From the sequence record MH752840.1: a stretch of DNA of 64,000 nucleotides; one strand, written 5' to 3'. Numbering within the stretch: the stretch's first letter is position 1; the number at the start of each line of letters is the position of its first letter. The notes beneath the pieces were generated by a model that saw only the letters and a list, made by a program, of their open reading frames with translations, was not told where the DNA came from and searched no databases. Of the stretch, positions 20,236-48,248 are shown piece by piece. The position numbers were made by a program, and so were the translations under genes. The DNA comes from Escherichia phage vB_EcoM-Pr121LW.

Positions 20236-20682
20236 TCAGTCCTCGCATTTAACAAATTTTTCTACAGATCCGCCAAGCACAGCTTGTTGCTTGATGGCAC
20301 TTGCTTCATCATAGTGGATAGACTTATGTTCCGTACCTCCAAACTTACCTGTGTGGAAGGTGTGCACCCAAATCTCTTTAGGAAGGGATTTATTCTCTTC
20401 CTCCACCAACTCCCACATACCCCACAAGTGATCTGTGATATCTTTGATGAAATATCCCTCTCCTAGGTTTGTATTCACACTATAGGCCGATTCGTGATTT
20501 CCGCAAATATAACGGAAGGCAGTGTACTCTTTTCCTGGTGTGAAGTGGGTATCCATTAGTATAGCTGTTAAAGAATAAGGGTCTCGAAAGCCCAAGAACT
20601 TTAGTTTAACAATTTCGACATTTACATCTGCAAGATTGTCCATGACGATCTCCTCTGTTTGGTTGGTGAGATAATCATACAT
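20236..20682 (-). CDS. hypothetical protein; candidate 2H phosphoesterase
   Basis: 148 aa; two H-x-T/S motifs (THFT at res 45-48, EHKS at 118-121) about 73 residues apart. Confidence 0.5.
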   Translation of the reverse strand: MYDYLTNQTEEIVMDNLADVNVEIVKLKFLGFRDPYSLTAILMDTHFTPGKEYTAFRYICGNHESAYSVNTNLGEGYFIKDITDHLWGMWELVEEENKSLPKEIWVHTFHTGKFGGTEHKSIHYDEASAIKQQAVLGGSVEKFVKCED

Positions 20683-33465: not shown

Positions 33466-34671
33466 ATGATTTTCATCTACGAACATTTCAAAACTCGTAA
33501 AGAAGCACGCGACCGCCGTGCAGAACTTGAGAAGAAGGGTTTCACATGTGCTATTGAGAAAGGTACTACAACATGGACACTGGCAGTAGGTGCCCCAGAG
33601 CTGTTTGATCCTGACCGAGACAGTGTCTGCTATACCCGTGAGGATTTTGAAACCCGCGAAGAGGCCCGTTTATTCCGCTACGGACTGGAAGACAACGGTA
33701 AGTACGCCATGATCTTAGATTCAGGAGAAGGTTCCGTTAAACGTTGGAGTGTGGTATACCCACTGTGCGTTGTTCACGGTGTGGGGTTCACTGGAGTAGC
33801 AATCAAGTCAGAAGAACCTTCAGTAGAAGTCAAAGATCCGGTGCTGGAGGTGGTAAGCAGTGTTTCTCAACAACAGACTCGAAGCATAGAGCCTTTAGTA
33901 GTTATTTGTGGAGAACTTCTCCAAATCACCTGCAACGAAGGTATTTTTGAAATTCGCCGCAGTGAAAGTGAAGAAGTTTACCAGAAAGTCTTCGACCATA
34001 TCTCTGTTCAGAAATATGACGAGGCAATTGGTGAAATCCTTGTCTGGTTGGAACGCAAGAATGAGTTCACTACACTTGCAGACAACCTGATTATGAAAGA
34101 TGGTAAGCTCTATTACTACGGTGTAGAGATGCAATCTACCATTGCAAAGAAAATTGAGGAAGATTATGTAGATGGAACACTGGACGACCGATATGTTAAA
34201 TTCCTTGTCCGTCTGCTACGCAACCCGTCTGCAAAATCTGTGAACATGCTCTACGATTTCATGCAGGCTAATGACATCCAGGTTGCAGAAGATGGTCGAA
34301 TCATTTGCTATAAAGGGGTTCAGTTTAACGGAGGCAAGTGGGTGGATTGGCACAGCGGTAAAGTTCCACAATACCAGGGTGCTTTTGTATCCATGCCTCG
34401 TAACTTTGTAGAAGATGATCCGGAAGCTGCGTGTTCTTATGGCCTGCACTGCGCCAGCAAAGAGTATGCAGCTGGCTATGGCACCGTAATGATGGTTATG
34501 GTTGACCCTGCGGATGTGGTTAGTGTGCCATACCAACACAACAGTGCTAAGTGCCGTGCATGCCGCTACGAAATCGTAGCAGCACCGGAATCACGCAAAG
34601 ATGGCGATCCGATTGAATACGTAGTTGACCGTGATGGTAACATCATCGACATTATCTACGAGGAGGCGTAA
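33466..34671 (+). CDS. rIIB: rIIB-like protein
   Basis: 401 aa; C-terminal MLYDFMQANDIQVAEDG…SYGLHCASKEY…VDPADVVSVP…AKCRACRYEIV resembles T4 rIIB as recalled; adjacent to rIIA. Confidence 0.8.
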   Translation: MIFIYEHFKTRKEARDRRAELEKKGFTCAIEKGTTTWTLAVGAPELFDPDRDSVCYTREDFETREEARLFRYGLEDNGKYAMILDSGEGSVKRWSVVYPLCVVHGVGFTGVAIKSEEPSVEVKDPVLEVVSSVSQQQTRSIEPLVVICGELLQITCNEGIFEIRRSESEEVYQKVFDHISVQKYDEAIGEILVWLERKNEFTTLADNLIMKDGKLYYYGVEMQSTIAKKIEEDYVDGTLDDRYVKFLVRLLRNPSAKSVNMLYDFMQANDIQVAEDGRIICYKGVQFNGGKWVDWHSGKVPQYQGAFVSMPRNFVEDDPEAACSYGLHCASKEYAAGYGTVMMVMVDPADVVSVPYQHNSAKCRACRYEIVAAPESRKDGDPIEYVVDRDGNIIDIIYEEA

Positions 34672-37638: not shown

Positions 37639-37666
37639 GCCCTGCCCGAAAGGGTGGGGCTTTTTG
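37639..37666 (+). terminator. rho-independent terminator GCCCTGCCC-GAAA-GGGTGGGGC plus T5
   Basis: GC-rich stem with G-U pairs, GAAA loop, TTTTT; identical hairpin recurs at 47785. Confidence 0.7.
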
Positions 37667-37683
37667 CATTAGGAGACAGCAAA

Positions 37684-38448
37684 TTGAAATTTATCTACAA
37701 AGAACACTACCACAAAGGTGTTGTGTGGAGTCTATTTGACGGGTCTGGTGGTGCAGTCATTGACTGGGCAAAAGCTGGGTACCTGTGCCTGTGCTTTAAT
37801 GCAGAAGGTGCTGATCACGGCAGTTATGCAGAGGTGATAACCGATCATCCCAACATTCACTATGTGGATTATTGGATTGACCCATGGTTCCCTCAGGAAA
37901 CTTTTTGCATGTACCCAGCTCCAGACTTTATTCTTGCATTTCCTCCGTGCACGCATTTAGCGGTATCAGGTGCTGCACATTTTAAGAAAAAGCTGGCTAA
38001 GGACCCTATGATCCAAATTAATGCTGTAAAGGATGCTCGGGTTGCGGAAGAGCTGGGAGAGATTTACGATTGCCCGTGGCATGTAGAGAATCCTGTAGGT
38101 GTTATGTCCACACTGTGGCGCAAACCTGATTACCGTTTTCATCCTTCTGACTATGGCGGGTATTTACCGGAGGATGATGTAAACCCTTGGTTTCCTGAAT
38201 TTATAGCTCCACGCGATGCCTATCCAAAAATAACTTGCGGCTGGATAGGTAATGGATTTATAATCCCGGCCACAAAACCTGTCCCGCAAATAGTTGACGC
38301 GGTTAGCGGGTATTCCATGCAACACGCTAAGCTAGGTGGAAAAAGTGCAAGGACGAAGATGATTCGAAGCCTCACACCCCGTGGCTGGGCAAAAGCCGTA
38401 TTCTTAGCAAACGAGCCTGTAGTAAGGAGCAGAATTAATGGGAAGTAA
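37684..38448 (+). CDS. C5-cytosine DNA methyltransferase-like protein (non-canonical)
   Basis: ORF track 37654 (GTG inside terminator); TTG 37684 preferred, AGGAG SD 8 nt upstream; motif I SLFDGSGG, motif IV-like FPPCTH, motif VI-like HVENPVG with canonical spacing; PCT replaces PCQ. Confidence 0.5.
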   Translation: MKFIYKEHYHKGVVWSLFDGSGGAVIDWAKAGYLCLCFNAEGADHGSYAEVITDHPNIHYVDYWIDPWFPQETFCMYPAPDFILAFPPCTHLAVSGAAHFKKKLAKDPMIQINAVKDARVAEELGEIYDCPWHVENPVGVMSTLWRKPDYRFHPSDYGGYLPEDDVNPWFPEFIAPRDAYPKITCGWIGNGFIIPATKPVPQIVDAVSGYSMQHAKLGGKSARTKMIRSLTPRGWAKAVFLANEPVVRSRINGK

Positions 38449-40574: not shown

Positions 40575-43352
40575 ATGAGTATGTATAGCTTCGATTTTGA
40601 GGCCTCTGGGCTTTTGGAAGATCCAGACCTTTATTATCACTGCGGCCTGTTTAAAGCGTTGAATAAGAACCGTTTTATGCTGTTCCTTCCTCTGAATGAC
40701 CGCACACACTACTCCGAGGAGGATATAGAGAAGGCTAAGAACTTTATTCTGGCAAAGAAAACTCTTTATAAGGATTTTGAAGTTCGCATAGCAGATTTTT
40801 CGGAGTTGGAAGGTTGGCTTACAGGAAATTCTGACTGGTCACCAACAGCTTTGAACTGCCATAACTGCTACAGTTATGACTTTATGCTGATGGAGAGATT
40901 GTCCGGTATTCATTTTGATATGTTCCGTGACCCTAAGTGTATGGGGACTATCAACGACCACCAGGTTAATCTGTTTGATACGTTGGCGATGAGCCGAATC
41001 TTGTGGCCTGATCGCCCTTTACCAAAAGGTTGTCCGGACTCTGTATTCAACCCGGTTACTAAGAAAATGCAGCCTGTTGGTCCTCACGGACTTATGGCAT
41101 GGGGCTACGCCCTTGGTAACCAGAAAGTTCAAATTGATGACTGGCGCGATCTTCCGTTGTGGAAGTATGTGGATCGTGTATTCGAGGACGTTATCATCCA
41201 GGAGCTGCTCTGGAAAGAGCTGGTAGCGGAATCAAAAGGTGTATTCTACGGCAAATCTGACATGCAGAACTTTATGTACGATCCTGCCAAAGAGAAGCCG
41301 AAAGGGTTCAAGAAGATCACCTGGAAGAACGCATTACGCCGAGGCATGCTGCAGCACTTCCTGATGGAACTGCAGGCCCGTCAGGGTGTGTATTTTGACA
41401 TAGATGGAGCTATTGCTTTACGTGACCGTTGCGATGCGTGGATGAAAGAAATCGCTGATCGTGTTGAACCTCAACTTCCTTTAAAAGAGTTATCAATATC
41501 TCAGCGGCCCAAGTTCCCTGAAAAGCCGTTTAACCAAGACGGGACAATCTCTAATAATGGTTGGAAATGGTTAAAAGATAAGCTTGGCTATCCTGTAGAC
41601 ATGAGCGCTTTAGATTTCAAATCCCCGCCTAAGCGAGCATTTACCTCTACAGGAGATGTCAGCAAGATGGGGATAAAATGGTGTGAAGAGATGGGCTGCA
41701 AAGACCCCGATAAGATGGCTGATTTCTTGAGAGGCTATATTAAGGGCACTTCCACACCTCACCCTTTGCCTAAAGAGCTGATGGATCAGGCAATAAGTGA
41801 TCTACAGCAGAAGCGAATGCCGGACTGCAAGATACCTATGAAAATCAGCAATCAGGACGACATTAAGCGGTATCTGATCAGTGCTGGCTGGCTACCGACA
41901 ATGTGGAGAACTAAGGATGTAACTAAAGATAGCAAGAAGAAAGCTCTACCTGATGCGGATGTTGATGCACGAGTATATGCATATATGGACGAGCTTTTAG
42001 AGTCAGAGTATTGTGACCTGATTATCAACTTCTGGAACAAAACTGATGCCAAGTTCCAGACAACTGTGCACAAGTTCCGAAGCTTTCCTAACTCTGAAAG
42101 GATTAAAAAGGAAGTATTCGGGAAAATACGTAGAAAAGCCAGAGCACTTATTACTTCTCCGCAACTGAAAGATACGTTTGGACACCTGTGTCCGAATCTT
42201 GAAAAATTGAACGGAGAGATGGCTAAAGATATCGTCTTGTGGTTATCATTGCGAAACCGCAGATCAGTCCTTGACCCAATCAAGGAGGATAAGGTTGATA
42301 CTGGTCTTCTTAATCACCCACGTTTGAAGATTGACCATAAGCTTCCTGCTAAAAGCTCTGGATTAACAAACACTTCCAGACAGAAACACAGTATTTGTGC
42401 AAACATGCCTAAACCATCCCCCAAAGTGGTTATGGGTAAAGAGATGCGCAGTCTGTGGGGTGTTCCTCCTGGATACTTTCAGATCGGTATTGACGGGTCC
42501 AACTTAGAGCAGCTTATCGGGGCTTGGGGTGCCTTTGAGTTCGACAACGGCTTGTATTATGATGTTGTAAGTAACGGGGACGCACACCAAAACAATGCTG
42601 AGGCATATACAAAAGTAGCAGGCAGAGAGGTGTCTCGTAACGACGGTAAACCTATCACGTATGGGGTTATGTACGGGGCACAAAAAGATAAAGTTGCAGA
42701 TATGCTGGACATCTCTCCAGAGTTGGGACAAAGGGTAATCGATGCACTCTGGGATGCCAACCCTGGTCTCAAGGGGCGCAAAGAGGATCTGGAGAAATTC
42801 TGGGAAGCAACTGGTAAGAAGTTTATCTACTCTTTTGATGGTCATGCTATCTGGACCAGATCTAAACACTCTTTACTTAATGCATACCAACAGAATGGTG
42901 GTGCATCGCTGTGTGACTTAGTTGGGATACTTATGCACCACCAGATGGTGAAGCGTGGGTGGTACGATGAAGGTGTTCGTCGTATTATCTATTACCATGA
43001 TGAGTACCAACTTCAGGTCCCTGACACTCCTAAGTATAAGACTGTGTACACCTTCGACACAATTGAAGAACTGGAAGCATTTAAGGCAGAGCAGGAGGCC
43101 AAACTTCATGTGTTCGACGGTCATAAGTACAAAAAGGCACGCAAGGATGAGGACGGAAACGAAGTGGTTGACAGAGACGGAAACACGGTGTACGATCCTA
43201 TCCTGAACGATGACGGAAAGCTTGAACTTATCTGGAGCCCTGTGGGTGAAATGGTGGTGCATTGCTTCTGGCAAGCTTCTAAAATGATGGGAGTCCCGTT
43301 CCAGATCACAGGTGAATACTTGTGTGGTCGTAACTGGGGTGATTGTCACTAA
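40575..43352 (+). CDS. family A DNA polymerase with 3'-5' exonuclease domain
   Basis: 925 aa; Exo I FDFEASGL; motif A-like IGIDGSNLEQ; motif B K…YGVMYGAQ; motif C YYHDEYQ. Confidence 0.9.
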   Translation: MSMYSFDFEASGLLEDPDLYYHCGLFKALNKNRFMLFLPLNDRTHYSEEDIEKAKNFILAKKTLYKDFEVRIADFSELEGWLTGNSDWSPTALNCHNCYSYDFMLMERLSGIHFDMFRDPKCMGTINDHQVNLFDTLAMSRILWPDRPLPKGCPDSVFNPVTKKMQPVGPHGLMAWGYALGNQKVQIDDWRDLPLWKYVDRVFEDVIIQELLWKELVAESKGVFYGKSDMQNFMYDPAKEKPKGFKKITWKNALRRGMLQHFLMELQARQGVYFDIDGAIALRDRCDAWMKEIADRVEPQLPLKELSISQRPKFPEKPFNQDGTISNNGWKWLKDKLGYPVDMSALDFKSPPKRAFTSTGDVSKMGIKWCEEMGCKDPDKMADFLRGYIKGTSTPHPLPKELMDQAISDLQQKRMPDCKIPMKISNQDDIKRYLISAGWLPTMWRTKDVTKDSKKKALPDADVDARVYAYMDELLESEYCDLIINFWNKTDAKFQTTVHKFRSFPNSERIKKEVFGKIRRKARALITSPQLKDTFGHLCPNLEKLNGEMAKDIVLWLSLRNRRSVLDPIKEDKVDTGLLNHPRLKIDHKLPAKSSGLTNTSRQKHSICANMPKPSPKVVMGKEMRSLWGVPPGYFQIGIDGSNLEQLIGAWGAFEFDNGLYYDVVSNGDAHQNNAEAYTKVAGREVSRNDGKPITYGVMYGAQKDKVADMLDISPELGQRVIDALWDANPGLKGRKEDLEKFWEATGKKFIYSFDGHAIWTRSKHSLLNAYQQNGGASLCDLVGILMHHQMVKRGWYDEGVRRIIYYHDEYQLQVPDTPKYKTVYTFDTIEELEAFKAEQEAKLHVFDGHKYKKARKDEDGNEVVDRDGNTVYDPILNDDGKLELIWSPVGEMVVHCFWQASKMMGVPFQITGEYLCGRNWGDCH

Positions 43353-43401
43353 TGTAAACTATCAGCACAGGGAGGTGCTGTCAAGCAAAGAGGAAACTTT
43401 T

Positions 43402-43686
43402 ATGGTAGTAGAACCAACAAAAACATTTACATCCATGACTATTCCTGTTATTATGCAGGTGGAGTGTGTTCAGGTATCTCAAGTGTGGCCTGGCACCAAA
43501 ATCCCAACAGGGCCTGATTTCTTTCAGGTTGGGAAAGTGTACAATGTCTGGAAGGCACCAGATTGTTACCCTTTCATTAAAGATGACCGTGGGATGCTGT
43601 GGTACCTTGGAAATGACTTGACACTGCACCTTGGGAATACTATTATTGCAGTATTCAGACTTAACAAGAAGGAGACCGATCAATGA
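43402..43686 (+). CDS. small protein, paralogue family member 1
   Basis: ORF track 43312 overlaps pol; ATG 43402 with AGAGGA SD; motif IKDDRGMLWY. Confidence 0.5.
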   Translation: MVVEPTKTFTSMTIPVIMQVECVQVSQVWPGTKIPTGPDFFQVGKVYNVWKAPDCYPFIKDDRGMLWYLGNDLTLHLGNTIIAVFRLNKKETDQ

Positions 43687-43910
43687 CGACTTTGGTTAAA
43701 GCTACCTTTGTAGAAGAAAAGATGACAGACCTGTCATTCTTTAAAGAAGGAAAGACCTACGAGGTTTATTACGATAAAGCTCGTGCAAACAAAATGATTA
43801 AAGACGAGGAAGGGGTTGCCTGGTATATCTCTCACCTGGCAAACGGTGAGTATCATATCTACGGGACCACTTTGCTTGCCAAGTTTGTAGTTGTTGAAGA
43901 GGACCTATGA
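43683..43910 (+). CDS. small protein, paralogue family member 2
   Basis: 75 aa; motif IKDEEGVAWY. Confidence 0.5.
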   Translation: MTTLVKATFVEEKMTDLSFFKEGKTYEVYYDKARANKMIKDEEGVAWYISHLANGEYHIYGTTLLAKFVVVEEDL

Positions 43911-44101
43911 AAGCAAAGTATCTTGCTGAAGGTATGAATAGGTATTTTACCCTTGGTGAAGAATATTGGCCCTTTACAAACAACGGCGATGTCTACGTGA
44001 AAGATAATTTCGGCACGCCGTGGTTTCTGCACTCTAATGGGCTGGGATACTCTATTTACTGCGGTGCAGTGAACAACACAACTCTTGCAGAGTTCGTTTA
44101 G
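43907..44101 (+). CDS. small protein, paralogue family member 3
   Basis: 64 aa; motif VKDNFGTPWF. Confidence 0.5.
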   Translation: MKAKYLAEGMNRYFTLGEEYWPFTNNGDVYVKDNFGTPWFLHSNGLGYSIYCGAVNNTTLAEFV

Positions 44102-44111
44102 AGGAGGTAGG

Positions 44112-44483
44112 ATGCTAGTAAAAGGTACCCACACAGTCAAACAACGTATTGAAGTTGAGATTGATGACTGTGAGCTGAAGCATATTTTACGGTCATGCTC
44201 CAACGTTTTGCTCCTTAGTATTCTTCAGGAGCGAGCGGAGAACGAGTTCTTAAATGCATTGGCAGGCCGTCCAGGTGACTTTTGTGTGCGTAAGCGTGGT
44301 GACAACAAGTCATGGTTGTGGGAAATCGATGCCGACTGGGATTACCACAAAAATGAGGGCATAGATGAGCCTATTCGTGAACTGACGGACAAAGAGATTC
44401 AGATGTACAATGAAGTTTGTCATTGGGCAACACGCCAACAAATTTACCTAGACCCTGTGTGGCTGATTGAAAATAGCCATTGA
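44112..44483 (+). CDS. hypothetical protein
   Basis: ORF track 44085; ATG 44112 after AGAGGAGG. Confidence 0.5.
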   Translation: MLVKGTHTVKQRIEVEIDDCELKHILRSCSNVLLLSILQERAENEFLNALAGRPGDFCVRKRGDNKSWLWEIDADWDYHKNEGIDEPIRELTDKEIQMYNEVCHWATRQQIYLDPVWLIENSH

Positions 44484-44559
44484 CAAGAAGTAAGATTAGA
44501 TATAAGATGCTTCACACAAACAAAGCGTTGATTTTTAAATAACTAAGGAGACTGCCAAG

Positions 44560-44814
44560 ATGAAAATTACTTTGAAGCCAGAATGCGTTGCAAATGACCG
44601 AGCTTTTAAAGATTGCACAGTCGGTGCAATCTATGAAGCAGAGTTTTGTGAGAACCCTCTGGTAAAAGCCCTTCTGGAAGAAGGGGCCCCTTTATCACAA
44701 GAAGAGATTGATGAGCTGGAAAACTCAGCACAGTGCCTTACCTTTAAAGATGATGAAGGAGACTCTGTCTGGTGCACTGTTAATGAGGTAGTTTTTGTAA
44801 AACCTGAACATTAA
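44560..44814 (+). CDS. small protein, paralogue family member 4
   Basis: 84 aa; motif FKDDEGDSVWC; AAGGAG SD. Confidence 0.5.
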   Translation: MKITLKPECVANDRAFKDCTVGAIYEAEFCENPLVKALLEEGAPLSQEEIDELENSAQCLTFKDDEGDSVWCTVNEVVFVKPEH

Positions 44815-44817
44815 TAC

Positions 44818-44846
44818 TTGACAACAGTGATAGGGCCTAATATAAT
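44818..44846 (+). promoter_or_regulatory. sigma70 promoter TTGACA-17-TATAAT with -10 inside a 9-bp-arm palindrome
   Basis: -35 at 44818-44823, -10 at 44841-44846; palindrome GATAGGGCC-N9-GGCCCTATC at 44829-44855. Confidence 0.65.
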
Positions 44847-44877
44847 GGCCCTATCAAAACGAAAGGGGACCACAGCA

Positions 44878-45150
44878 ATGACCAAACAATATCAACGAAT
44901 TAAAGCCAAGGTTAAGCCAGACTATCTGGAGAAAGACTCTGCTTTTCGGGACTGCACAGCCGACAAAGTTTACACAGGGGCCGTCCTGTTGAACGATGAA
45001 CTTGAAGTAGATATTCTGGGTAAAGAGGCCACTATTAAGGACGACCAAGGCGATTATGTTTGCTGCACCACACGTGAGCTAGAAATCTTAGAATACTTCG
45101 GTGAAATCTTCACCTCTCTTGATGATTACTTAGATGATGAGGAAGCGTGA
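44878..45150 (+). CDS. small protein, paralogue family member 5
   Basis: ORF track 44818 would include the promoter; ATG 44878 preferred; motif IKDDQGDYVCC. Confidence 0.5.
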   Translation: MTKQYQRIKAKVKPDYLEKDSAFRDCTADKVYTGAVLLNDELEVDILGKEATIKDDQGDYVCCTTRELEILEYFGEIFTSLDDYLDDEEA

Positions 45151-45539
45151 TGAAAAATATTTGGGATATCAATATCTTTGAAGCCTCTAAGCTTGATGGT
45201 GCTGATGGAGTGATTATGGTATCTGATGGCAAGGCAACACTAACTTCCGGAGATATCATCTATGCCTTGGACGAGCTGGCGCTTCTGAAATCTACCGGTA
45301 ACACTCTAGAGGAGCGTCTTCAAGGCTTCGCCTTCAAAGAAGGTACAAATACAGCCATGATGTGCACCACACGGACAGTTCAGATGGGTAACGGTGTCTA
45401 TATGATTATTGCTGTGTGTCCTAAATTCAGCAACGTCAACAAAGATGATGCTGACGCGGTGAACGATGTGGTTGTTCTCTTCGTGGGTGACGCTATGGCA
45501 GATCTGATGAATGCAGGGGAAGCAGCAAATGAAGACTGA
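45147..45539 (+). CDS. hypothetical protein
   Basis: 130 aa. Confidence 0.5.
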   Translation: MMKNIWDINIFEASKLDGADGVIMVSDGKATLTSGDIIYALDELALLKSTGNTLEERLQGFAFKEGTNTAMMCTTRTVQMGNGVYMIIAVCPKFSNVNKDDADAVNDVVVLFVGDAMADLMNAGEAANED

Positions 45540-45831
45540 AAACATCACCCCAGCAGGGTTCTTAAAAGTATACCGTGAACTGCTGTATACTACAGAGGAC
45601 AGTGTTCTAGAGTATCCAGAATATCTCTTGCTGTATAAGTATCTGCAGGAGGCTGGTGAAAATCTGCCAGTTAGTGCAGAAGGCGGTCCGAACTGGGTAT
45701 ACAGCGCATGGAGAAAGGTTGACATTATCCCAGACCCAGGCAAAGATATGGTAGTTTGGCAGCTTATCAACAACATCGGGATTCCAATCTTTGATGAAGC
45801 TGTTAAAATCTATTTTGAACTTGACGATTAA
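45529..45831 (+). CDS. hypothetical protein
   Basis: ORF track 45511; ATG 45529 preferred. Confidence 0.45.
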   Translation: MKTENITPAGFLKVYRELLYTTEDSVLEYPEYLLLYKYLQEAGENLPVSAEGGPNWVYSAWRKVDIIPDPGKDMVVWQLINNIGIPIFDEAVKIYFELDD

Positions 45832-45848
45832 TATCAGGAGACCTTAAG

Positions 45849-46094
45849 ATGACTGAAGTAGTTGCTCGCGCAGGACAGAAAGTACGTTGTGTTGAAGTAG
45901 GTTTTGGTGGCAAAGGGTGTCAAAACTTGACTCAAGGTAAGGAATACGCTGTTATCTCTGGTGGTGGCGACGAAAGTATTGTGTTCGAGGGCCACATCCT
46001 GGATGCTGAAAACTTTGAAATCTTTGACGACGATGGGGATCCGATCACCTGCCTGCTGGACGGGAATTGGGGAACTTTCGAAGTGATTGGCTAA
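45849..46094 (+). CDS. small protein, paralogue family member 6
   Basis: 81 aa; motif FDDDGDPITC. Confidence 0.5.
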   Translation: MTEVVARAGQKVRCVEVGFGGKGCQNLTQGKEYAVISGGGDESIVFEGHILDAENFEIFDDDGDPITCLLDGNWGTFEVIG

Positions 46095-46104
46095 CAAATA
46101 CCTA

Positions 46105-46133
46105 TTGTAATTTACAGAAGGGGATGCTAAAAT
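46105..46133 (+). promoter_or_regulatory. candidate promoter TTGTAA-17-TAAAAT
   Basis: -35 at 46105-46110, -10 at 46128-46133; upstream of ATG 46178. Confidence 0.4.
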
Positions 46134-46177
46134 AGTGTCTCCTTCTATGTTGTTCAAATAAAATCGGAGATTCCATA

Positions 46178-46543
46178 ATGGAACAAATGAACGATCAAGA
46201 GTCGGTTGCGATGAACGAGCAAGAACAACCTCAAGAATTTTTCTTAGGGTTAAGTAAAGATCAAGTGTCTCTTTTGCTAGTGCTTTCTTCTTTCATGGGA
46301 AGACTTCAGGAGCTCACACAACAACCGGAGGCTGAACAATTATTTCAGGCTCTGCGTGAAGAAGAAAAATATCGTCGTTTGGACTATGCCTTAGGTTGGG
46401 TAGCTCAACAACGAGATATGCTAATGGCCCTCTCTGGGACCACAAGTTTTGCAATGGGCCTATTGGCTCAAGTTCAGGACAAATTAATTCAAGCAGGGTT
46501 TGCACACACGGCAAACACTAACGAAGAACAAGGAGACAAATAA
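46178..46543 (+). CDS. hypothetical protein
   Basis: 121 aa; Gln/Glu-rich. Confidence 0.5.
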   Translation: MEQMNDQESVAMNEQEQPQEFFLGLSKDQVSLLLVLSSFMGRLQELTQQPEAEQLFQALREEEKYRRLDYALGWVAQQRDMLMALSGTTSFAMGLLAQVQDKLIQAGFAHTANTNEEQGDK

Positions 46544-47769
46544 TGAGCGTTATTCAACAATTTGCTAACCCGATGAATCCGCGTGAAACTGTTTTACTGG
46601 CTCACGGTATGATCAAGCGTGTTAGCATCAAACCTATTAAAGGAGCTGATCCTGCAACAGGTATTAAAACCACCGTGTGGCAAGGTAAGAAAATTGAATC
46701 CAGCCACACCATCTCTTTACTGATTTCTGAACTGGATTCCTCTGATAACCTACTTCAAGGCGGTGAAGAAGTCTGGATCAGCATGGGTGATAAGCTGCTT
46801 AAACCTGGCCATCAAGACTCTGTCTCTGTTAAGATTGATGACAAGTGGGAAACCGTAACGCCAGGATGGATCGTAAATATTCCTTTGAAGGCAAACGAGC
46901 ATAACGGTAAGACCTATTACAAAGGCTCACTGGCTAAGATGGTCAAGCTGGGTGCAGGAGAGGCTCCAGCAGCGACTCAGCAGCAAAAACAGCAACAAGG
47001 TGCACAATCACAAGGCCAGAAGCAGAAACCTCAGCAGAATGCCAATCAGGACGTTTTACGCATCTATGGCGATGTGACTCAGATTGTTGGCAACGTGGTT
47101 ACTGTTAATGACCACAAGATCGGCGAAGGTGCTATGGTTGTCACGGATGAGCAGCTTAAAGACCTGGTGGTAGGTGGTCGTGTTGCAGCCATTGTTGACA
47201 AAGACACCGGAAACATTATCAGTGGTTTCAAAGCCTATCCACCTAAGGCAGAGAACGGCACCCAAGGTTCTGGTGGCAAGCGTAAATCCTCTTACGACCC
47301 TATTGGTGTGGAGACTGGGCATAGCATCAATGCGTTGCAAATCATCCTGGATCGCGGGTTTAAGGTAGACGACCCACTAGGTGTGGCTAAAGCACTGCAC
47401 GTAGTCACCATTGAGCTTAAGAAAGAGTATGCTCAAGCCACCAACCGAACTGAAGATGAAGTAGGTGCCAGTGTCGGTAATGCGGTGTTGAACGCTTGTC
47501 GCCGTATTGACAAGAAAACGAAAGTTGATGATTTTGCAGCGGCAATTACTGCAGAAGCAAAAGATGTGTTGACTAATCTGGCTGAGCCGTTGTACGATTG
47601 GATCAAGAACGGTGCTGGGTCAACTGACCATCAAGAACCTCAGGCTGCCAAACAGGAAGCAGCTCCACAGCAAAACACTGTAGACGCTCCTCCTGTAAAT
47701 GATGGGGAAGACGACCCGATGGATCAGAATCCAGCACAGTACGCCTTTGATGATGACATCCCCTTCTAA
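46543..47769 (+). CDS. ssDNA-binding protein-like, C-terminus DDDIPF
   Basis: 408 aa; Gln-rich linker; acidic C-terminal tail ending FDDDIPF as in bacterial SSB; replication-module context. Confidence 0.5.
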   Translation: MSVIQQFANPMNPRETVLLAHGMIKRVSIKPIKGADPATGIKTTVWQGKKIESSHTISLLISELDSSDNLLQGGEEVWISMGDKLLKPGHQDSVSVKIDDKWETVTPGWIVNIPLKANEHNGKTYYKGSLAKMVKLGAGEAPAATQQQKQQQGAQSQGQKQKPQQNANQDVLRIYGDVTQIVGNVVTVNDHKIGEGAMVVTDEQLKDLVVGGRVAAIVDKDTGNIISGFKAYPPKAENGTQGSGGKRKSSYDPIGVETGHSINALQIILDRGFKVDDPLGVAKALHVVTIELKKEYAQATNRTEDEVGASVGNAVLNACRRIDKKTKVDDFAAAITAEAKDVLTNLAEPLYDWIKNGAGSTDHQEPQAAKQEAAPQQNTVDAPPVNDGEDDPMDQNPAQYAFDDDIPF

Positions 47770-47784
47770 CATCTAGTTAACATA

Positions 47785-47814
47785 GCCCTGCCCGAAAGGG
47801 TGGGGCATTTTTGT
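47785..47814 (+). terminator. rho-independent terminator GCCCTGCCC-GAAA-GGGTGGGGC plus T-run
   Basis: Second copy of the 37639 terminator hairpin, followed by ATTTTTGT. Confidence 0.7.
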
Positions 47815-47831
47815 ATAAGGAGATCTGAAAA

Positions 47832-48248
47832 ATGACATTAGAAGATATCATTGTTAAACCTGAGAACTATGACCAATACAACCTGTCAACTCAATCTGTA
47901 GACCTTGGATGCGCCACAGTCAGTGCGTGGCTGGTTAACGGAAAAGAGCTGGACAAGTGCTTAGAAGCTCACATGTCTGTTAACAAGTTTCTGGATGAAA
48001 ATACTCACTGGCTTGAGGGTGCTGGAGTATATGCTTCATGGTTGGAGAGCATGGGCTTTGACTATCAATCTGATGAAGGGTGGTGGAGCTATCTAGCTAT
48101 CTGTCCAGAAACACTGCAATGCTTCATGAAATATTCTGAAGATTTGGAGTACCGGGCGGTGGTTGATAGTGCTATTGCCCGTTATAGCCGTAAACCTTTT
48201 TCCCACGACATTAAAACTGTGGAAGAGTTTGTTGAAGTTTTCTGTTGA
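47832..48248 (+). CDS. hypothetical protein
   Basis: 138 aa; AAGGAG SD. Confidence 0.5.
   Translation: MTLEDIIVKPENYDQYNLSTQSVDLGCATVSAWLVNGKELDKCLEAHMSVNKFLDENTHWLEGAGVYASWLESMGFDYQSDEGWWSYLAICPETLQCFMKYSEDLEYRAVVDSAIARYSRKPFSHDIKTVEEFVEVFC

Follow-up and report, generated by a model that had tools for sequence, protein, structure and literature searches.

Just 3' of the DNA polymerase gene of Escherichia phage vB_EcoM-Pr121LW lie six small open reading frames (ORFs), here called genes A to F, whose predicted products carry variants of one short motif. We studied them within a 64,000-nucleotide stretch of the phage genome (record MH752840.1), referred to below as the window. The question that this locus raises is whether the six proteins belong to one family and, if they do, what such a family might do for the phage. 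We found that all six are genuine genes, that direct sequence statistics sort their products into three groups (A/B/C, D/E, and F alone), and that the three groups are probably branches, old and far diverged, of a single superfamily of stand-alone SH3-like small beta-barrels. The new element is a confident prediction of a fold like that of Gp54 of phage Bas11 for the tandem triplet A/B/C in an rV5-like phage. Taken as a whole, one barrel superfamily with a protein-binding accessory role is the best explanation that we can offer, and we lean slightly towards it.

Six conserved genes and two sets of adjacent paralogues

The host genome of the cluster is that of a Vequintavirus (rV5-like) coliphage; the 2.9-kb stretch that holds the cluster has 98.9% identity with phage LL12 and 88-97% with the other 116 Vequintavirus records. 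A first-pass annotation of this DNA had listed the six ORFs, each with a motif string, and had placed them downstream of the polymerase. All six ORFs are present where it put them (Table 1), all six strings were found, and the cluster does begin behind the polymerase gene, 50 nt past its stop. A Shine-Dalgarno site lies 6-10 nt 5' of the ATG of every gene (agaggaaa in the case of gene A), and the six are annotated in every relative examined, LL12, isim, NHEP1, JEP1, ECP26, HeinrichReichert, and JLBYU08 among them, with gene A carried as a coding sequence in the first six of these. Across seven genomes, the ratios of nonsynonymous to synonymous substitution rates (dN/dS) are 0.016 for A, 0.143 for B, 0.093 for C, 0.104 for D, 0.109 for E, and 0.137 for F. 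Each of the six ORFs is a real and conserved protein-coding gene. Antisense ORFs at 43381-43683, 43859-44203, and 45834-46157 were rejected as spurious, since purifying selection acts on the plus frames, which also have Shine-Dalgarno sites and are annotated in every relative. The six proteins are 7-10 kDa in size, and the predicted isoelectric point is 6.5 for A and 4.1-5.0 for the other five (4.2 for D).

Within the first group, A and B are similar at blastp 1e-5 (hhalign 79%), B and C at blastp 7e-4 over 69 aa (hhalign 21%), and A and C at blastp 0.04. The A/B and B/C junctions are 4-nt ATGA stop/start overlaps, through which the three genes are translationally coupled, and by their similarity we regard A, B, and C as adjacent paralogues, a translationally coupled triplication. 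Invariant throughout the three families are, in B numbering, F20, G23, Y26, D41, G44, W47, A66, and F68. Gene A has an N-terminal extension, a long beta1-beta2 loop, and the motif FIKDDRGMLWY; in its orthologues P0039 and P0040, an internal stretch of 11 aa is duplicated in tandem precisely at the motif (KAPDCHPFIKE / KAPNCYPFIKDD).

D and E, separated by a spacer of 63 nt, are similar at blastp 1e-10 and hhalign 97%, with reciprocal PHROG matches around 1e-5, and this similarity indicates adjacent paralogues that arose by duplication. Gene D has an extra insert of ~15 aa, LVKALLEEGAPLSQEEIDELENS, between beta2 and beta3, which we infer to be helical; its length differs among orthologues, P0057 and P0063 carrying deletions of 10 aa and 2 aa. 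Gene E ends in an acidic C-terminal tail, LDDYLDDEEA. In PHROG the six proteins fall into six separate families, with reciprocal cross-matches between A and B and between D and E. The tandem array of six paralogues that had been described is therefore correct in part: A/B/C and D/E are each adjacent and each paralogous, but three unrelated genes are interleaved in the series, and the link from group to group runs via profiles of the F family alone.

Predicted folds and the shared motif

A greedy gene set totalling 19,646 aa holds five copies of the motif KD[DEN]xG, where shuffles give 1.0 +/- 1.1, so that the core motif does recur beyond chance. B to E account for four of the five, and A, which is outside that gene set, brings the cluster's own count to five.

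The AlphaFold2 model of B, made with the A/B/C alignment, has a predicted local distance difference test score (pLDDT) of 90.4 and a predicted template modelling score (pTM) of 0.79. It is a small beta-barrel of seven strand segments by DSSP (residues 2-10, 25-31, 36-40, 46-48, 51-53, 56-60, and 64-70) with a short helix at 12-16, like Gp54 of Bas11. The AlphaFold2 model of E, made with the D/E alignment (pLDDT 82.9), is a five-stranded SH3/KOW-like barrel (strands 5-12, 31-37, 50-54, 60-64, and 68-78; helix 14-19) with a floppy insert at 38-49, and the acidic tail follows it. The strand order is common to the two models: beta1, a short helix, beta2, beta3, the DDxG turn, beta4, and the terminal strand or strands. 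In both, FxxG/C-x-x-Y leads into beta2, and I-K-D-D/E-x-G forms the end of beta3 and a tight turn into beta4. Because the motif is a tight hairpin turn in both models, we read it as a structural signature: placed at the turn between beta3 and beta4 in these predictions, it would mark the fold rather than be an obvious binding determinant. Across the superfamily the shared order would then run from beta1 through a short helix or loop to beta2 (F-x-x-G-K-x-Y-x-V), by way of a variable insert to beta3, which ends in I-K-D-D/E-x-G, and on to beta4 and the C-terminal strand or strands.

Both models match SH3-like domains but retrieve different specific structures. As kin among SH3/KOW-like small beta-barrels we count SH3 domains, the insertion-domain barrel of Ski2, the KOW domains of eL14 and eL27, and FeoA. 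The Foldseek neighbours of B in BFVD include many small proteins of T1-like Drexlerviridae, at template modelling (TM) scores of 0.7-0.8 and often several per genome, as well as proteins of Cronobacter CR9 and phAPEC8. A 78-aa 'putative minor capsid protein' of isim (MN850597), encoded outside the cluster, also neighbours the B model in BFVD, at TM 0.66-0.68.

Likeness of the A/B/C triplet to Gp54

Gp54 of Bas11, whose structure was solved in 2024 (Zhang et al., Nature), is described as a very rare six-stranded barrel of unknown function, non-essential, that binds CapRelSJ46 directly (PMC11578894). It activates this fused toxin-antitoxin, partly unfolding meanwhile, and its authors speculate that it may inhibit another defence system (PMC11578894). 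A Gp54 homologue with 3 substitutions does not trigger CapRel (PMC11578894); triggering is highly specific, and for that reason no trigger activity can be inferred for A/B/C. Gp54 defines Pfam PF25180 ('Phage antiviral trigger protein Gp54'), where it scores 116 bits against a gathering score of 27 bits. For comparison we used its sequence as recovered through the Bas10 homologue; its structures are PDB 9AXB and 9ERV.

Gp54 and the triplet are alike in being stand-alone phage proteins of ~65-75 aa encoded among small accessory genes. The B model has the features of the Gp54 fold, a rare small beta-barrel of six strands that has a long beta1-beta2 loop, although DSSP divides the model into more segments than the six strands that Gp54 is described as having. 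The two also align in the expected register: FKKG of Gp54, whose G24 is a CapRel-escape site, corresponds to FFKEG of B with its invariant G23, and GxxW of Gp54 (W43) is aligned with GxxW of B (W47). Gp54 differs in carrying YHSG where A/B/C carry the KDDxG turn, and it is the product of a single gene in a T1-like siphovirus, whereas A/B/C make up a tandem set of three paralogues in a myovirus of 136 kb. The A/B/C branch of the proposed superfamily would have the rare barrel of Gp54.

One superfamily or three neighbouring families

Gene F opens onto a wider family. Its residues 3-81 match phrog_4927 at E 7.1e-28, and its relatives P0092 and P0098 match the same PHROG; the proteins are about 70-100 aa long and follow the pattern GDKVKCV...LTxGKEYEV...FxIxDDxGDxIyC...WExV. 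By tblastn the family is found in Vequintavirus, in T1-like Klebsiella and Aeromonas siphophages of ~46-48 kb, and in one Klebsiella Vequintavirinae phage. An exhaustive hidden Markov model (HMM) search with the F family yielded 11 diverse relatives of 69-102 aa, which were included in a deep F-family profile.

It is this deep profile that connects the groups. In hhalign it matches the D/E profile at 57% (P 1e-4, 42 columns) and the A/B/C profile at 29% (P 6e-4, 35 columns), with both motifs covered and 0/200 shuffles reaching the score in either case. When the deep profile is combined with D/E, the match to A/B/C is 60% (P 8e-5; 0/150 shuffles) over 57 co-linear columns that run from beta1 to the last strand; with three Bas10 proteins added to it instead, the match is 80% to A/B/C and 48% to D/E. 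Overall, the enriched profiles give 48-80% probability over 54-59 co-linear columns, the shuffle test among these enriched pairs covering the combined F and D/E profile against A/B/C alone. PHROG families point the same way for part of the cluster: A, B, and F-family members match overlapping regions of phrog_3523, and B and F-family members match phrog_10169, the matches of A and B to families of this type being weak (E 0.002-0.02). D and E are linked to the group of phrog_4927, phrog_10169, and phrog_3523 solely via hhalign to the F profile.

These results have to be set against the alternative that survives best, namely that A/B/C, D/E, and F are three unrelated neighbouring families in which the hydrophobic-K-D-D/E-x-G string is convergent. 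An Asp/Gly-rich tight turn after a strand is a common hairpin solution, and small acidic beta-rich proteins are abundant in phage early regions. The sub-group HMMs are blind to each other (E > 1), the E model resembles generic SH3/KOW barrels where the B model resembles Gp54 specifically, and the separation of all six proteins in PHROG fits unrelated families too. We nevertheless consider convergence rather unlikely. The enriched profiles are co-linear over most of the barrel, the score climbs with profile enrichment, as true homology predicts, and A, B, and the F family have PHROG hubs in common. In both models the two motifs FxxGKxY and KDDxG come in one order and occupy matching secondary-structure elements, and the chance of finding KD[DEN]xG in a second unrelated neighbouring family is ~0.004 per 80-aa protein.

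A number of results weigh against one superfamily of Gp54-like, protein-binding barrels. Compared directly by hhalign, A/B/C and D/E match at 1.5% over 11 columns around the motif, a score that 5/200 shuffles reach. When the 83 real ORFs of the window are ranked with the combined F and D/E profile, A, B, and C come 6th-8th, with scores of 17.4-17.9 against a background of at most 15.9, and the column shuffles break beta-strand periodicity and so may overstate significance. The structure comparison rests on the models of B and E, by strand order and database neighbours. Searches with the six proteins gave no significant match in Pfam or NCBIfam, weak Pfam matches to DUF7127, DUF7244, and DUF2383 all being below threshold, and none of the six matches PF25180 even at E <= 1. 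The match of the Gp54 family to A/B/C in hhalign is marginal (score 16.5, 3.5%, P 0.013, 41 columns; 4/200 shuffles). The binding function is drawn solely from size, charge, fold class, and analogy, and in the literature we found no paper on these genes, nor experimental or expression data for them.

Other searches were likewise negative. There was no hhalign signal between the Gp54 family and D/E or the F family and no significant match in PDB sequence searches with the six proteins, and word-indexed searches with B and with a six-way alignment returned within-genus orthologues only, at 72% identity or more. Since the margin in the ranking of real ORFs is thin, we call the common ancestry of all six, as judged from sequence profiles, probable rather than established; on the remote-homology and fold-class evidence a common origin is plausible.

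Possible dispersed relatives of the F family

One more protein encoded in the window, a product of 148 aa from the minus strand at 20236-20682 (Table 1), has the F-family layout and is without the KDDxG turn. In hhalign it scores 30.3 (56%, 73 columns) against the combined F and D/E profile and 33.0 (77%) against the deep F profile with the Bas10 proteins, in alignments of 53-73 columns, and it outscores A to E against F-family profiles. Its N-terminal domain matches phrog_30425, and the 45 aa at its C-terminus match phrog_3955. We count it as a possible seventh relative, dispersed from the other six.

The T1-like phage Bas10 (IsaakIselin) carries several scattered proteins of this layout: bas10_0043 joins an F-type N-terminus, MKVKCVEN, with an A-E-type turn, YKIKDESGQ, and bas10_0065 and bas10_0081 are further similar proteins. 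Besides the Gp54 homologue bas10_0057, this genome encodes at least five dispersed small proteins with the layout FxxGKxY...KDExG...WExV; the Bas10 loci listed with the Gp54 homologue and the layout proteins are 33845-34015, 42759-42944, 47187-47381, 47378-47851, and 37664-38029. Proteins of the mini-barrel type are numerous within the Bas10 genome.

Conservation of the cluster and what its proteins may do

All 117 Vequintavirus records contain, in synteny, a ten-gene stretch that includes the six genes, and 115 of them cover at least 80% of it; of the other two, one is a fragment of 1.6 kb and one starts inside the cluster. Gene content, order, and copy number are the same in the 115 records spanning the cluster, gene lengths are constant save for the E tail (E is 86 or 90 aa), and orthologues are 91-98% identical. 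The dN/dS of neighbouring unrelated genes, 0.02-0.13, is in the same range as that of the six. Paralogues have diverged to about 30-35% identity, and at the DNA level the cluster holds only short, chance-level repeat matches; because no DNA repeats remain, the duplications must be old. Hints of local plasticity are limited to the 11-aa duplication in A, the indels in the insert of D, and the variability of residues 21-49 in B, which correspond to the face by which Gp54 contacts CapRel. In orthologues of B, variable positions make up 19 of these 29 and 19 of the other 46 (Fisher p = 0.058).

A 'distant' blastn search with the cluster found nothing outside Vequintavirus. Sixteen MG0656xx records entitled 'Campylobacter phage' (host Campylobacter jejuni) are 94-97% identical to the cluster and are probably Vequintavirus coliphages, mislabelled or contaminated.

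What would such barrels do? Tentatively, and with somewhat less than an even chance of being right, we propose by analogy with Gp54 that these acidic, non-enzymatic barrels are accessory modules of early or mid infection, each docking on a different host or host-defence protein. Docking would be through the exposed beta2-beta3-beta4 face, and the partner of each module could be a host, a defence, or a phage protein. The barrels would probably be dispensable in the laboratory, like Gp54, and bacterial immune sensors could detect them.

A different role has to be weighed in view of where the genes lie, between the DNA polymerase and a 408-aa putative single-stranded DNA-binding protein (SSB): the six could be replisome accessory factors, for example adaptors or regulators of replication, whose partner would be the DNA polymerase of the phage, its primase-helicase, or the SSB-like protein. 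Their strict conservation and fixed copy number in the genus fit such a role, as would the acidic tail of E if counted as SSB-like; we take LDDYLDDEEA to resemble the interaction tails of SSB-type proteins. The genes also have a transcription unit in common with replication genes (PMC3606486): in rV5 the polymerase (gp228) is within the transcription unit of genes 10-1-238-164, the genome is reported to have 33 promoters near the Escherichia coli sigma70 consensus (PMC3606486), and the six genes belong to this replication-gene unit, driven by host sigma70-type promoters. The rV5 genome paper makes no mention of paralogues (PMC3606486). We hold the replisome role to be improbable all the same. 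In other Vequintavirinae genera, whose polymerases are 62-66% identical, HMM and hhalign scans 3' of the polymerase (Seunavirus 4MG, Mydovirus (Klebsiella) VLCpiM5a, and the phi92-like A7_1) gave nothing significant, and because those genera are without detectable homologues there, the proteins are not a conserved part of the replisome. In addition, Gp54, their structural analogue, is dispensable to Bas11, and F-family members occur in T1-like phages, whose replication machinery differs.

Returning to the accessory, protein-binding barrels, a stronger version of that proposal is that the cluster is an expanded battery of 'unfoldable' mini-barrels of the Gp54 type, in which each member is tuned to its own immune sensor or host hub protein; the barrels would partly unfold and clamp a domain of the target, inhibiting or decoying defence systems. 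We think this distinctly improbable. Least credible is the idea, close to the first-pass suggestion of a family diversifying against variable host factors, of an actively diversifying arms-race family whose copy number and sequence track such factors: the low identity of the paralogues, the concentration of variable sites of B at 21-49, and the indel variants of A and D would fit it, but copy number, fixed in 117 Vequintavirus records, and gene order are constant, orthologues are 91-98% identical, no DNA repeats are left, and the dN/dS of 0.016-0.143 is that of the neighbours, so that of the duplication and diversification proposed earlier, duplication stands for A/B/C and D/E and ongoing diversification does not.

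Promoters and neighbouring genes

Sigma70-like sites are enriched in the promoter scan (17 against 8.1 +/- 2.8 expected), and two of them precede genes D and E (Table 1). The E promoter is found in 8/8 Vequintavirus loci with an identical -35 box and a -10 box of TATAAT or TACAAT. Its -10 box falls in the loop of an inverted repeat, ATAGGGCC/GGCCCTAT (44830-44854), that occurs once within the window. In the stem of ATAGGGCC/GGCCCTAT, the eight loci show one compensatory double change (GGACC/GGTCC in HeinrichReichert) and three single changes that retain G.U pairing. These changes suggest that the repeat, in the D-E intergenic stretch 44818-44855, acts as an RNA hairpin on read-through transcripts or as an operator.

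Table 1. Genes and promoters in and around the cluster, with the candidate relative elsewhere in the window
Feature	Coordinates	Strand	Length or sequence	Family	Remarks
Candidate dispersed relative	20236-20682	-	148 aa	phrog_30425, phrog_3955	N-terminal ~95 aa with F-family layout (VKLKF...HFTPGKEYTAF...LWGMWELVE)
DNA polymerase	40575-43352	+	925 aa	family A	
Gene A	43402-43686	+	94 aa	phrog_12922 (rV5-type)	A/B/C sub-family
Gene B	43683-43910	+	75 aa	phrog_12623	central A/B/C member
Gene C	43907-44101	+	64 aa	phrog_12802	third A/B/C member
Unrelated gene	44112-44483				between C and D
Sigma70-like promoter	44480-44508	+	TTGACA-17-TAAGAT		5' of D; scan score 10/12
Gene D	44560-44814	+	84 aa	phrog_12544	D/E sub-family
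Perfect sigma70 consensus promoter	44818-44846	+	TTGACA-17-TATAAT		5' of E; scan score 12/12
Gene E	44878-45150	+	90 aa	phrog_11936	D/E sub-family
Unrelated gene	45150-45539				between E and F
Unrelated gene	45529-45831			DUF7238	between E and F
Gene F	45849-46094	+	81 aa	phrog_4927	wider F family
Unrelated gene	46178-46543				after F; fourth unrelated gene
Putative SSB	46543-47769	+	408 aa		C-terminus ...AFDDDIPF

In this phage the DNA polymerase gene runs without a break, whereas in many of its close relatives, such as LL12 (annotated 'intron-interrupted'), HeinrichReichert, FV3, APECc02, isim, and JLBYU08, an HNH homing endonuclease or an intron divides it. At the other end, the 408-aa protein, a putative SSB by the annotation of JLBYU08, is Gln-rich and of low complexity in its central part and has no Pfam or NCBIfam match. 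Its end, DDDIPF, is presumably the same acidic tip as that of the E. coli SSB tail, and the protein is probably a phage SSB that mimics the interaction tail of the host SSB.

Significance

Taken together, the models and profiles suggest that the 'rare' barrel of Gp54 belongs with other small phage proteins in a superfamily that is widespread and loosely connected. The fold is apparently not rare in phages: the cluster would hold three tandem copies and probably three or four remoter relatives, and predicted-structure neighbours are frequent in T1-like phages. If the improbable battery reading were true, these paralogues would define a class of phage proteins, widespread and so far overlooked, that spans Vequintavirinae and Drexlerviridae and acts in counter-defence or as triggers. 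The cluster itself is stable and not rapidly evolving, and we rate its significance as moderate. It offers a conserved and genetically tractable gene set, with orthologues in the BASEL collection (e.g., bas58_0078-0086 of HeinrichReichert, Bas58), for probing the roles of phage mini-barrels and their sensing by bacterial immunity.

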